Positions 48,893 through 50,209 of a stretch of DNA of 64,000 nt are shown in pieces. Each line of letters opens with the position of its first letter. The first letter of the stretch is position 1. This DNA is from a virus (Duplodnaviria; Heunggongvirae; Uroviricota; Caudoviricetes). Where the stretch lies: the IMG/VR virus record IMGVR_UViG_3300016476_001281; one strand, given 5' to 3'. Below the pieces are notes generated by a model that worked only from the letters and a program-made list of their open reading frames with translations, was not told where the DNA came from and did not search any database. Position numbers and translations under genes: made by a program.

Positions 48893-48904
48893 TTTAATAT
48901 ATAG
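48893..48904 (+). promoter_or_regulatory. conserved phage box TTTAATATATAG (candidate late promoter)
   Basis: A TTAATATATA(A/G) box found about 8 times in the window, always within 1-21 nt of a start codon. Confidence 0.45.
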
Positions 48905-48909
48905 AAATA

Positions 48910-49011
48910 ATGAGAACAACTTTTAAACATACAAGCTTTAGTAAATCGTTCAAGTGGTTTAGCCACAAGTTCGGATGTATGAGTATGTCTAAAAGTTCTC
49001 AAATGAAATAG
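48910..49011 (+). CDS. small ORF (33 aa, Ser/Lys-rich) in a promoter-sORF-terminator mini-cassette
   Basis: Encodes MRTTFKHTSFSKSFKWFSHKFGCMSMSKSSQMK. It lies between the conserved box and a terminator and is paralogous to the sORF at 50073. Confidence 0.3.
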   Translation: MRTTFKHTSFSKSFKWFSHKFGCMSMSKSSQMK

Positions 49012-49053
49012 GTGTTGATTTAGCTTAGAGAGAATAATAGAAAACATAAACAG

Positions 49054-49090
49054 AAACCCGAACTTAAAACAAAGTTTGGGTTTTTTTATT
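49054..49090 (+). terminator. rho-independent terminator
   Basis: Hairpin CCCGAACTT-aaaacaa-AAGTTTGGG followed by TTTTTTT. Confidence 0.65.
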
Positions 49091-49096
49091 TTACAC

Positions 49097-49169
49097 TCTC
49101 TCGAAGCTCATGTGGACGGGCACTCAGCTTTTAACCGAGGGGTAGTGGGTTCGAGGCCCATCGGGAGAA
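49097..49169 (+). tRNA. tRNA-Lys(UUU), tentative (one mismatch in anticodon stem)
   Basis: Acceptor TCTCTCG/CGGGAGA, T-arm GTGGG-TTCGAGG-CCCAT, anticodon loop CTTTTAA. Confidence 0.5.
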
Positions 49170-49174
49170 CAAAT

Positions 49175-49260
49175 ACAGATTAGCATAATGGTATGCACCA
49201 GGTCTCCAAAACCTTGGCACCTTAGGGTGGTAGGAAAGAGTTCGATTCTCTTAATCTGTG
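49175..49260 (+). tRNA. tRNA-like, 86 nt: Trp-type anticodon loop (CCA) with an extra 4-bp variable-arm hairpin
   Basis: Acceptor ACAGATT/AATCTGT, D-stem GCAT/ATGC, anticodon loop CTCCAAA, T-arm AAGAG-TTCGATT-CTCTT. The extra hairpin is CACC-ttag-GGTG. Confidence 0.4.
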
Positions 49261-49267
49261 CAAAAAA

Positions 49268-49340
49268 GGAGGGGTAGCTCAGTTGGTAGAGCAACGGACT
49301 GAAAATCCGTGTGTCGTGGGTTCGATTCCCACCCTCTCCA
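49268..49340 (+). tRNA. tRNA-Phe(GAA)
   Basis: Canonical GGAGGGGTAGCTCAGTTGGTAGAGC...ACGGA-CTGAAAA-TCCGT...GTGGG-TTCGATT-CCCAC-CCTCTCC-A. Confidence 0.85.
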
Positions 49341-49350
49341 CAGAAATATG

Positions 49351-49438
49351 GTGTTTGTAACCGGTAAAGGCAGCCGACCAGATTGTGGATCTGGAATGAA
49401 TTAATTTTCTAATGCAGGTTCGAATCCCGTCTTACACC
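49351..49438 (+). tRNA. tRNA-His-like (anticodon arm CCAGA-TTGTGGA-TCTGG, GUG) with ~19-nt insertion; possible pseudo/variant
   Basis: The 3' end GCAGG-TTCGAAT-CCCGT-CTTACAC-C is near-identical to tRNA-His at 49855. The 5' acceptor pairs poorly, and there is an extra AATGAATTAATTTTCTAAT segment. Confidence 0.35.
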
Positions 49439-49444
49439 CAACAA

Positions 49445-49517
49445 GGAGCTGTGGCAGATGTGGTCATTGCGCTGGACTGAAAATCCAGAGGAACGGGATC
49501 GTAACCCGTCGGCTCCA
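49445..49517 (+). tRNA. tRNA-Phe(GAA), variant T-loop
   Basis: Acceptor GGAGCTG/CGGCTCC, anticodon arm CTGGA-CTGAAAA-TCCAG, T-arm ACGGG-ATCGTAA-CCCGT. Confidence 0.6.
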
Positions 49518-49524
49518 CAAATAT

Positions 49525-49596
49525 GCAGATTTAGCTGAGACGGTTTAGCGTAGGAGTGAAGTCCCTAAGAGATCGGTTCGATTCCGATAATCTGCA
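49525..49596 (+). tRNA. tRNA, anticodon loop GTGAAGT (GAA-like; isotype uncertain)
   Basis: Acceptor GCAGATT/AATCTGC (perfect), D-stem GCTG/TAGC, anticodon stem TAGGA/CCCTA with an A-C mismatch, T-arm ATCGG-TTCGATT-CCGAT. Confidence 0.5.
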
Positions 49597-49605
49597 CAAG
49601 TATAT

Positions 49606-49676
49606 ACGTCATTGGTGAAATGGTATCATCCTGGTCTCCAAAACCAGTGTTCCAGGTTCGAGTCCTGGATGGCGTG
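49606..49676 (+). tRNA. tRNA-Trp(CCA)
   Basis: Acceptor ACGTCAT/ATGGCGT, anticodon arm CTGGT-CTCCAAA-ACCAG, T-arm CCAGG-TTCGAGT-CCTGG. Confidence 0.7.
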
Positions 49677-49682
49677 CAATAT

Positions 49683-49767
49683 TCCCTCTTAGCTCAGTTG
49701 GTTTGCATTAGCTTAGAGCACCTGACTTTTAATCAGGGGGTCGTAGGTTCGAATCCTACAGGGGGAA
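49683..49767 (+). tRNA. tRNA-Lys(UUU) with ~12-nt D-loop expansion
   Basis: Acceptor TCCCTCT/AGGGGGA, D region GCTCAGTTGG-tttgcattagct-TAGAGC, anticodon arm CCTGA-CTTTTAA-TCAGG, T-arm GTAGG-TTCGAAT-CCTAC. Confidence 0.5.
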
Positions 49768-49778
49768 CAAATAAATTT

Positions 49779-49852
49779 GACTTCGTAGCTCAGTTGGTAG
49801 TAGCACCTCACTTTTAATGAGGGGGTCGTGGGTTCGAGTCCCACCGGGGTCA
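49779..49852 (+). tRNA. tRNA-Lys(UUU)
   Basis: Acceptor GACTTCG/CGGGGTC, anticodon arm CCTCA-CTTTTAA-TGAGG, T-arm GTGGG-TTCGAGT-CCCAC. It is a tandem paralogue of 49683. Confidence 0.75.
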
Positions 49853-49854
49853 CT

Positions 49855-49928
49855 GTGTAGGTAGCTTAATTGGTCAAAGCACTTGGTTGTGAGCCAAGGG
49901 ATTGCGGGTTCAAGTCCCGTCTTACACC
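49855..49928 (+). tRNA. tRNA-His(GUG)
   Basis: Acceptor GTGTAGG/CTTACAC, D-stem GCTT/AAGC, anticodon arm CTTGG-TTGTGAG-CCAAG, T-arm GCGGG-TTCAAGT-CCCGT, discriminator C. Confidence 0.8.
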
Positions 49929-49934
49929 CAAATT

Positions 49935-50024
49935 AGTCTGATGATATAGTGGCATTATTTGGTCGTCGATCCAGTTTACTGGGGTATCTTCGGCAGAACA
50001 CAGGTTCGATTCCTGTTCAGACTA
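49935..50024 (+). tRNA. tRNA-like, 90 nt; internal fold unresolved (one possible fold has anticodon UUA with a pyrimidine at position 37)
   Basis: Perfect acceptor AGTCTGA/TCAGACT and T-arm ACAGG-TTCGATT-CCTGT. The interior holds a tight hairpin TCCAG-ttta-CTGGG and about 17 extra nt. Confidence 0.4.
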
Positions 50025-50056
50025 CTAAGTAAAAAAGTAAAAACAAAAGAATAAAA

Positions 50057-50070
50057 TTTTAATATATAAG
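50057..50070 (+). promoter_or_regulatory. conserved phage box TTTTAATATATAAG (candidate late promoter)
   Basis: Same box as 48893, 50435 and 22987. It ends 2 nt before the ATG at 50073. Confidence 0.45.
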
Positions 50071-50072
50071 TT

Positions 50073-50150
50073 ATGAAAACAATTATAAGTACATCGTCAA
50101 GTTCTTCAAGTCGCTCAAGTAAATTGAGGGAGGTTCTTGTGTATTCATAA
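50073..50150 (+). CDS. small ORF (25 aa, Ser-rich) in the second promoter-sORF-terminator mini-cassette
   Basis: Encodes MKTIISTSSSSSSRSSKLREVLVYS. The cassette architecture is paralogous to that at 48910. Confidence 0.3.
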   Translation: MKTIISTSSSSSSRSSKLREVLVYS

Positions 50151-50173
50151 TTTTTTAAGTAAAAAGTTATTTG

Positions 50174-50209
50174 AAACCCTTGAACCAAAAGTTCAAGGGT
50201 TTTTTTTAT
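50174..50209 (+). terminator. rho-independent terminator
   Basis: Hairpin CCCTTGAAC-caaaa-GTTCAAGGG followed by TTTTTTTT. Confidence 0.7.

Follow-up and report, generated by a model that had tools for sequence, protein, structure and literature searches.

Short leader peptides ahead of the tRNA operons of huge phages as candidate ribosome-mediated transcription attenuators

Leader-peptide attenuation is an established bacterial mechanism, and it provides the closest described parallel to two short cassettes that precede transfer RNA (tRNA) genes in a 64,000-nucleotide (nt) stretch of viral DNA, IMG/VR record IMGVR_UViG_3300016476_001281 (Caudoviricetes), referred to here as the window, in whose positions all coordinates are given. 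Like the trpL, hisL, pheL, leuL, thrL, and ilvL attenuators, each cassette has a short open reading frame (ORF) in which regulatory codons are clustered, with an intrinsic terminator after it, and, as in trpL-type attenuators, the 5′ arm of this terminator has an alternative pairing partner in an upstream segment, clear in cassette 1 and only putative in cassette 2, so that the position of the ribosome would be the decider. Unlike the leaders of biosynthetic operons, the phage cassettes stand before tRNA genes instead of enzyme genes, and the molecule sensed would be the operon's own product; they mix the codons of 2–7 amino acids, according to the tRNA set behind them, instead of presenting a run of codons for a single amino acid; their ORF extends 3–17 codons beyond the antiterminator segment; and they are phage-encoded, with no conserved 1:2 hairpin found. 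The trp paradigm terminates when its leader is left untranslated, whereas folding of the phage leaders predicts an antiterminator even when no ribosome is present.

Other described systems share individual traits with these cassettes. The pheM leader of E. coli pheST is a case of leader-peptide attenuation of a component of the translation apparatus by its cognate aminoacyl-tRNA; its target is a synthetase gene and a single amino acid is involved, whereas the phage cassettes precede tRNA genes and combine several amino acids per leader. T-box riboswitches likewise couple tRNA status to a choice between terminator and antiterminator ahead of translation-related genes. They bind uncharged tRNA directly, through a specifier codon and the conserved T-box sequence and without a ribosome, whereas the phage leaders are shorter and contain an ORF under coding constraint. 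The T-box covariance model (RF00230) found no match in 48600–51500 even at E <= 1, and in the region Rfam, used at the gathering score and at E <= 1, returned only tRNAs and sub-threshold leader and PyrR matches, with no T-box or riboswitch. No Rfam leader family (Trp_leader, His_leader, Phe_leader, Leu_leader, Thr_leader) reached its gathering score, and the sub-threshold leader matches fell on cassette 2 only (His_leader, 24.2 vs 49; Phe_leader, 25.3 vs 55). Among phages, the tRNA cluster of T4 offers a lead, since it is transcribed as polycistronic precursors that include short non-tRNA RNAs (species 1 and 2); we know of no leader ORF, terminator/antiterminator switch, or codon–tRNA correspondence in that cluster. 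Full-text literature searches returned no description of leader peptides or attenuators before tRNA genes, and the passages retrieved from PMC7162821, which report huge-phage tRNAs, do not mention how those tRNAs are regulated.

We consider it likely, at a probability of roughly 0.8, that the two cassettes are ribosome-mediated leader-peptide transcription attenuators of huge-phage tRNA operons. In both, a promoter box is followed in turn by a short ORF, by a strong intrinsic terminator, and, 3–9 nt past the T run, by a tRNA gene (Table 1); the window has ~27% G+C, and its dense tRNA region spans 49097–51310. A terminator scan over 8 kb found 7 terminators against 3.0 expected, the two cassette terminators scoring best. 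An earlier note, made from the letters of the window, had described two promoter–short ORF–terminator cassettes ahead of tRNAs; all elements lie where it placed them, and both leader peptides, of 33 and 25 amino acids (aa), read exactly as it gave them. Its finer details need amendment: the box is present, with a cassette 1 copy that begins CTTT and not TTTT; an ATG does follow soon after the box, at 3 nt in cassette 2 and at 5 nt in cassette 1 in place of the 1–3 nt given for both; and the tRNA does stand close behind the T run, by 3 nt in cassette 2 and by 4–9 nt in cassette 1, where 2–7 nt had been given. Its view of the cassettes as paralogous is plausible rather than proven, since the two have no more sequence in common than the box, ATGA(G/A)AACAA, and, at the base of the terminator, GAAACCC...GGGTTTTTTT.

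The leaders are rich in codons for the tRNAs behind them. Of the 32 residues counted in the first leader, 6 are Lys, 5 are Phe, 2 are His, and 1 is Trp, i.e. 14/32 against a background of 0.143 in the proteome of the window (binomial P = 5e-5), and every confident anticodon of the tRNA block that follows (UUU, GAA, GUG, CCA) has a readable codon within codons 5–19. In the cassette 2 leader, 12 of 24 residues are Ser or Arg, against a background of 0.114 (binomial P = 3e-6). It reads ...S T S S S S S S R S S..., with AGT x4, TCA x4, TCG, TCT, and CGC, and thereby covers all four anticodons of its block: CGC for Arg(ACG), TCA and TCG for Ser(UGA), TCT for Ser(GGA), and AGT for Ser(GCU). Such compositions are rare among the short ORFs of the window, being reached by 4 of 364 for Lys/Phe/His/Trp and by 1 of 364 for Ser/Arg, the cassettes themselves included. 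The earlier note had raised attenuation sensing Ser/Lys-tRNA availability, and its attenuator part is supported here by codon match, covariation, geometry, and in-frame constraint; the scope is broader than it supposed, taking in Lys, Phe, His, and Trp in cassette 1 and Arg together with Ser in cassette 2.

The same rule holds across related phages. Both cassettes are conserved in LR745206.1 (634,780 bp) and LR756502.1 (642,428 bp), the sole relatives in the annotated collection that cover them, and in dozens of IMG/VR contigs of 25–500 kb retrieved by pattern scans. A mechanical search of all fetched loci (numbered with L below) for a short ORF, a terminator, and a run of tRNAs recovered ~70 distinct cassettes, which fall into roughly 11 types and come from 53 loci of related huge phages predicted to infect Bacteroidetes. 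The leader ORF is retained in all ~70, and those of the window have start and stop codons and lie on the strand of the tRNAs, directly ahead of them. The leaders differ with the tRNAs that follow: SYESYYEEG and YYYEAYEE precede Glu and Tyr tRNAs; ISIAVIGNGAGAI precedes Ile(UAU), Gly, and Ala; MNLNMTMNLTLNVVNITLCNIR precedes Asn, Leu, Thr, Val, Ile, Met, and Arg(UCU); PQPMQDQD precedes Gln, Pro, and Asp; QQYQQQQ precedes two Gln tRNAs; NLNINLTLNVLCLRQR precedes Arg(UCU) and Leu x4; and NINVITITN precedes Asn, Ile, and Thr. The mean share of leader residues that are cognate to the downstream tRNAs is 0.362; permuted pairings average 0.178 and do not exceed 0.244, so that 0 of 20,000 permutations reach the observed value. 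When each distinct tRNA set is represented only once, the figures are 0.344 and 0.179. Every one of the 20 amino acids is commoner in leaders when its own tRNA lies downstream, and for 94.8% of downstream anticodons the leader contains a codon that they can read, compared with 56.7% under permutation (maximum 68.5%). The match extends to synonymous codons: Arg codons are 27 CGN and 13 AGR before Arg(ACG) and 18 AGR and 3 CGN before Arg(UCU), and the Ile codons before Ile(UAU) are mostly ATA.

Rearranged operons act as natural experiments, in which the leader is changed along with the tRNA set. Where the cassette 1 operon is split (L004), the leader ahead of two His tRNAs reads FKHKFFHNH, and the one ahead of a unit with only Lys and Phe tRNAs reads KGFKKFFKKNF; where the Tyr/Glu and Ile/Gly/Ala operons are merged (L025, L034), they lie under a merged leader, IEAIGYAYEAG; and in L032, L028, and L262 the Lys/Phe/His/Trp and Ser/Arg tRNAs form a single operon under a leader of the cassette 1 type. 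Several searches came back empty or unspecific. The 50-kb upstream flank in LR745206.1 (L040) has no tRNA cassettes; a degenerate Glu/Tyr-leader pattern had 0 matches in viral contigs; and the cassette 2 pattern AAGTTCN{1,4}AGTCGCTC was unspecific, drawing 120 mostly random loci (L041–L160), of which L152 alone was useful and the rest were left out. In 185,579 species-representative bacterial and archaeal genomes, the cassette 1 motif had 9 matches, all by chance and none with a cassette or tRNAs, and gave neither a bacterial counterpart nor a clue to the host. In the passages retrieved from PMC7162821, the largest genomes of that study are assigned to the Mahaphage clade, and those above 634 kb are predicted to replicate in Bacteroidetes; the host of the window phage is most likely a member of the Bacteroidetes.

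The conserved part of the cassette 1 leader looks like coding sequence. Over codons 5–19 of ten cassette 1 sequences, which had been retrieved without constraining this core, the proportion of synonymous differences (pS) is 0.575 and that of nonsynonymous differences (pN) is 0.244, a ratio of 0.42, against 1.26 and 1.03 in the other two frames. The terminator is the only structure that RNAalifold predicts for cassette 1, the conserved core being left unstructured; the conservation therefore concerns codons, not RNA shape. Past this core, the cassette 1 ORFs vary freely in length and sequence (alignment A1). The earlier note had posed the alternative that relatives keep only the terminator hairpins or also the amino-acid level, and it is codon identity that proves conserved, not hairpins alone. 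We take the leader ORFs to be probably translated.

The pairings expected of a terminator/antiterminator switch are clear in cassette 1 and weak in cassette 2 of the window. The cassette 1 duplex AAGTTCGG/CCGAACTT has 8 bp and -11.4 kcal/mol (p = 0.01 vs shuffles), beats most foreign terminators as a partner, and appears in the fold of a transcript truncated before the 3′ arm of the terminator. Across the 21 sequences of alignment A1, 90.5% of cells in this helix are paired, with compensatory changes in 5 of its 7 pairs (AGTTCGG/CCGAACT, AACTTGG/CCAAGTT, GATTCGA/TCGAATT, and AACTCGG/CCGAGCT among the variants); none of 500 shuffles reaches the observed value, and slid controls stay at <=56%. 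The terminators covary as well, with 90.9% paired and 8 of 13 pairs compensatory in cassette 1 and 93.4% paired and 5 of 13 compensatory in cassette 2. For cassette 2, the equivalent antiterminator helix xTTCGA/TCGAAx covaries in a sister subfamily (ATTCGA/TCGAAT, GTTCGA/TCGAAC, ATCCGA/TCGGAT). Internal hairpins are conserved in the cassette 2 ORF, of which the small one listed in Table 1 may be a pause hairpin. Over 39 cassettes, the duplex with the cassette's own terminator reaches p < 0.05 in about half.

The geometry of the leaders indicates the direction of the switch. Of the leader residues encoded ahead of the antiterminator segment, 44% are cognate, a share that drops to 19% between the start of the segment and the end of the ORF (p = 3e-7). 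In a footprint model, in which a 28-nt ribosome mask was placed at each codon in turn and the remainder folded at equilibrium, the 5′ arm of the terminator is 60–80% sequestered with the A site on any cognate codon, and sequestration falls to 10–30% 1–3 codons later, when the ribosome covers the segment. From this geometry follows the predicted sign, by which a stall would favor the antiterminator and readthrough, and smooth translation would favor termination.

The proposed mechanism would begin with initiation at a host-type promoter (cassette 1 only) and/or at the TTTAATATATA box, after which the short ORF would be translated at once, the mRNA from the box promoter being leaderless or nearly so. 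The first 15–19 codons would present a sample of the codons read by the downstream tRNAs, and directly after this sample, still inside the ORF, would lie the segment complementary to the 5′ arm of the terminator. Should any sampled aminoacyl-tRNA be scarce, the ribosome would stall, the free segment would pair with the terminator arm, and polymerase would read through into the tRNAs, which RNase P would then cut out of the readthrough transcript. Should the sampled tRNAs be plentiful, the ribosome would cover the segment, the terminator would form, and a leader RNA of ~140–185 nt would be released. The outcome would be negative feedback, each tRNA operon sensing the supply of its own products; we infer the sign and kinetics of this switch, as well as the promoter and polymerase that it would use. 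Extended to the group, a picture that we hold to be probable, with somewhat less assurance than for the two cassettes themselves, is that huge phages of Bacteroidetes arrange their whole tRNA complement as self-sensing operons, with codon-barcode leaders that sample every encoded tRNA and open when any one becomes limiting.

Several observations weigh against this mechanism or limit its reach. The antiterminator of cassette 2 in the window consists only of the 5-bp core GGTTC/GAACC and some adjoining pairs (-8.7 kcal/mol, p = 0.11), and the corresponding helix is 81% paired overall, the failures falling in the window's own subfamily, off the covarying register. In the footprint model the antiterminator also forms without any ribosome (median 0.63), and the cassette 1 antiterminator of the window re-forms on arrival of the ribosome at the stop codon. 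Kinetic coupling, with the ribosome still on the segment while polymerase synthesizes the terminator, would therefore be needed for termination in the replete state. RNAalifold finds no conserved 1:2 (pause/anti-antiterminator) hairpin in the cassette 1 ORF. The switch further presupposes that the polymerase of the box promoter obeys intrinsic terminators and that transcription and translation are tightly coupled in the host. Many of the ~70 cassettes are homologous, which brings the number of independent cases nearer to 11–15. Ser (8) and Thr (3) are likewise abundant in the cassette 1 leader of the window, with no Ser or Thr tRNA in the block that follows, and the doubtful tRNA-like gene at 49935–50025 has no matching leader codon. 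The Ser codons can be explained, indirectly, by the relatives that merge the Lys/Phe/His/Trp and Ser/Arg operons and by readthrough into the second block.

The explanation that stays closest to the preferred one keeps the ribosome-dependent attenuator and changes its cue, to amino-acid starvation or charging, translation capacity, or host shut-off, or reverses its sign, so that a stall would lead to termination. Its anatomy would be identical, classical leaders sense charging and not the amount of tRNA, and, with an antiterminator that forms without a ribosome in the model, any loss of translation would give readthrough. We nevertheless regard it as unlikely: the match at the level of anticodons, with its 94.8% coverage and its CGN/AGR split, has no obvious use in a general starvation sensor, and cognate codons placed upstream of the antiterminator segment point from stall to readthrough, not the reverse. 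A switch operated by a factor or by direct tRNA binding, either T-box-like or through a phage antiterminator protein and with the ORF incidental or modulatory, could likewise draw on the terminator and its alternative pairing, on the frequency of protein antiterminators in phages, and on the extra conserved hairpins of cassette 2. We judge it very improbable in view of the lack of any T-box or riboswitch family match in the interval searched, an ATG-to-terminator distance of only ~95–140 nt, the presence of up to 7 amino acids in one leader within a single frame that has both ATG and stop, and a pN/pS below 1 in the leader frame only.

Two further accounts, both of them considered by the earlier note, are disfavored. 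Were the ORFs to encode functional micropeptides on their own short transcripts, with tRNAs arising from constitutive leak through the terminator, one would expect conserved peptide sequences and a promoter motif and terminator for each unit, all of which are found; yet the composition of the peptides tracks the tRNA set in ~11 leader types that are unrelated to one another and shifts wherever operons have been split or merged, and only the cognate-rich N-terminal part is conserved, the C-terminal parts being free in length and sequence, which leaves this account with very little probability. The reading of the regions as purely non-coding, i.e. as 5′ leader or processing elements of tRNA precursors or as small RNAs with ORFs that occur by chance in AT-rich DNA, would accommodate the conserved structured RNA elements and the folding z-scores of the two cassette regions (-3.5 and -4.5). 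It is equally hard to credit against an ORF kept in every cassette, a constraint confined to its frame, an unstructured cassette 1 core, and the scarcity of short ORFs of comparable composition in the window.

Two kinds of promoter-like sequence accompany the cassettes. The box TTTAATATATA was considered as a cassette-specific element and rejected as such, as ordinary genes have it upstream too. All 8 exact copies in the window precede an ATG on the same strand, 6 of the 8 at +4 to +6, and the box therefore behaves as a general gene-start or promoter motif of the phage; its position suggests a phage promoter that yields leaderless or nearly leaderless mRNAs. The second kind is a Bacteroidetes-type motif (TTTG, 20 nt, TACTTTTG = TAnnTTTG), a candidate promoter ~60 nt 5′ of the cassette 1 ATG; it also precedes 44 of 72 related cassettes but occurs in only 1.5% of 130-nt segments of the window. 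An earlier copy stands in tandem with it at 48674–48704, the spacing in the pair being 19–20 nt, and is followed by a 13-aa ORF, MVFTTIIQKFVNF, at 48727–48768, without a terminator. An internal tRNA promoter was also sought, and the sole sigma-70-like match inside a leader (50124–50151, 9/12) lies upstream of the terminator and would give no bypass. With tRNAs that begin 3–9 nt past the T runs and stand 1–10 nt apart, there is no room for a promoter, and every tRNA transcript therefore crosses a terminator.

Some features of the relatives bear on initiation and on the make-up of the operons. Leaders of otherwise unrelated types nearly all start M-(K/R/T/N)-T-(I/N/T), i.e. ATGANAACAA, which suggests either a common origin by duplication or a need for efficient initiation on leaderless mRNAs. 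One relative (L039, 20842–20943) has an initiator-like tRNA-Met (CGCGGGG..., 1:72 mismatch) with a box 18 nt upstream and neither ORF nor terminator between; this would fit the attenuation model, because an initiator tRNA cannot be sensed by elongation codons. A 9-codon mini-ORF, MKTK(L/R)KYKR, lies directly before a tRNA-Lys sub-block of the cassette 1 operon in L001 (3864–3893) and L002 (~3755–3784); its Lys-rich composition agrees with the tRNAs that follow, but the hairpin after it lacks a T run, the arrangement differs from a classical terminator unit, and the window has no such mini-ORF. Suppressor-type tRNAs occur in leader-gated operons of two relatives, CUA in the Gly/Ala operon of L186 and UUA in the cassette 1 block of L031, a hint that part of the clade may recode stop codons. 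No sign of such recoding is seen in the window: TAA ends 34 of 41 long ORFs, and reading TAG or TGA as sense lengthens ORFs by only 8–10%.

Table 1. Features of the cassettes and the tRNA region, in positions of the 64,000-nt window
Feature	Position	Strand	Remarks
Exact copies of the box TTTAATATATA	5006(-), 17217(-), 22988(+), 46677(-), 48893(+), 50058(+), 50436(+), 63006(-)		
Candidate Bacteroidetes-type promoter motif	48819-48850	+	read from sequence
Cassette 1 box CTTTAATATATAG	48892-48904	+	5 nt ahead of ATG; generic, putative gene-start/promoter motif of the phage
Cassette 1 leader ORF, 33 aa, MRTTFKHTSFSKSFKWFSHKFGCMSMSKSSQMK	48910-49011	+	ATG 48910, stop TAG 49009-49011; kept in 21 distinct relatives (alignment A1)
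Cassette 1 regulatory codons 5-19 (F K H T S F S K S F K W F S H)	48922-48966	+	Phe, Lys, His, and Trp codons
Cassette 1 antiterminator 5′ strand AAGTTCGG, codons 20-22	48967-48974	+	complement of CCGAACTT, 49058-49065, in the terminator 5′ arm
Cassette 1 intrinsic terminator (putative attenuator)	49052-49092	+	14-pair hairpin 49052-49085, T runs to 49092; A-rich spacer of 41 nt from the ORF
tRNA block 1	49097-50025	+	ARAGORN and Rfam; spacers 1-10 nt; first tRNA begins 4-9 nt past the T run
Cassette 2 box TTTTAATATATAA	50057-50069	+	3 nt ahead of ATG
Cassette 2 leader ORF, 25 aa, MKTIISTSSSSSSRSSKLREVLVYS	50073-50150	+	stop TAA 50148-50150; kept in 14 distinct relatives (alignment A2)
Cassette 2 regulatory codons 6-16	50088-50120	+	AGT ACA TCG TCA AGT TCT TCA AGT CGC TCA AGT
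Small hairpin within the cassette 2 ORF (CTCAA/TTGAG)	50114-50128	+	84% of cells paired; compensatory CTCAT/ATGAG, CTCGA/TCGAG
Putative cassette 2 antiterminator 5′ strand GGTTC, codons 20-22	50132-50136	+	pairs with GAACC 50182-50186 in the fold; weak in the window
Cassette 2 intrinsic terminator (putative attenuator)	50173-50207	+	13-pair stem 50173-50203, 8-T run 50200-50207; spacer of 22 nt from the ORF
tRNA block 2a	50211-50387	+	Arg(ACG) 50211-50297, beginning 3 nt past the T run; Ser(UGA) 50304-50387
Box and 222-aa ORF	50436-51135	+	box 50436-50447, ORF 50467-51135; HTH domains (Pfam HTH_23, GerE, others); inside the Arg/Ser operon, between Ser(UGA) and Ser(GGA)
tRNA block 2b	51127-51310	+	Ser(GGA) 51127-51213; Ser(GCU) 51222-51310
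Terminator closing the tRNA region	51314-51345	+	terminator scan

Behind cassette 1, the block runs in the order Lys(UUU), a CCA tRNA with a long variable arm, Phe(GAA), His(GUG), Phe, Phe, Trp(CCA), Lys(UUU) with a D-loop insert, Lys(UUU), His(GUG), and the doubtful tRNA-like gene, which makes Lys(UUU) x3, Phe(GAA) x3, His(GUG) x2, Trp(CCA), the second CCA tRNA, and the one doubtful gene. No terminator lies between this block and cassette 2, which would therefore also gate readthrough from block 1. The tRNAs of the Arg/Ser operon are interrupted by a 222-aa ORF with helix-turn-helix (HTH) domains, in which an HNH-like motif, DHIDGD...N...CPNCD, was read by eye without a Pfam match. Its stop overlaps the start of the Ser(GGA) gene, and its own box may drive Ser(GGA) and Ser(GCU) independently. 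Similar ORFs stand elsewhere in the tRNA blocks of relatives (L003 near 11900; L039 at 22636–23073), and such shifting positions of HTH/HNH-like ORFs are as would be expected of mobile homing-endonuclease genes.

Several of the tRNA genes are non-canonical. The second CCA tRNA (49175–49261) has 87 nt and a long variable arm; His(GUG) at 49351–49439 has an AT-rich insert of ~15 nt in its variable region; Lys(UUU) at 49683–49768 has a 13-nt insert in the D loop; Arg(ACG) has a 14-nt variable insert; and the tRNA-like gene at the end of block 1 has 91 nt, with a tetraloop-like anticodon arm. The relatives too have Lys, Asn, Arg, and Thr tRNAs of 84–90 nt. Just upstream of the tRNA region, at 47193–47597, lies a gene for a YqeY-like protein (PF09424, E = 2e-12); the YqeY domain resembles the C-terminal domain of GatB and is tied to aminoacyl-tRNA metabolism.

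Why huge phages carry dozens of tRNAs is still debated, and to our knowledge the way in which phages regulate their own tRNA genes is poorly understood. If the proposed attenuation is correct, these cassettes would be the first case of leader-peptide attenuation of tRNA genes and the first multi-amino-acid leaders that co-evolve with the content of their operon. They would form a feedback circuit in which translation senses the supply of tRNA and transcription of tRNA is the output, i.e. a textbook mechanism applied to a new class of target. The leaders would help to annotate odd tRNA-like genes, by naming the codons that an operon serves, and would provide synthetic biology with a compact natural design for sensors of single tRNA pools. 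For the phages themselves, such leaders would amount to an on-demand replacement of tRNAs, e.g. where the host pool is mismatched to an AT-rich codon usage or has been cut by anticodon nucleases, and would mean that shortage of specific tRNAs, whether from codon-usage mismatch or from tRNA-cleaving host defenses, is a real selective pressure during infection.

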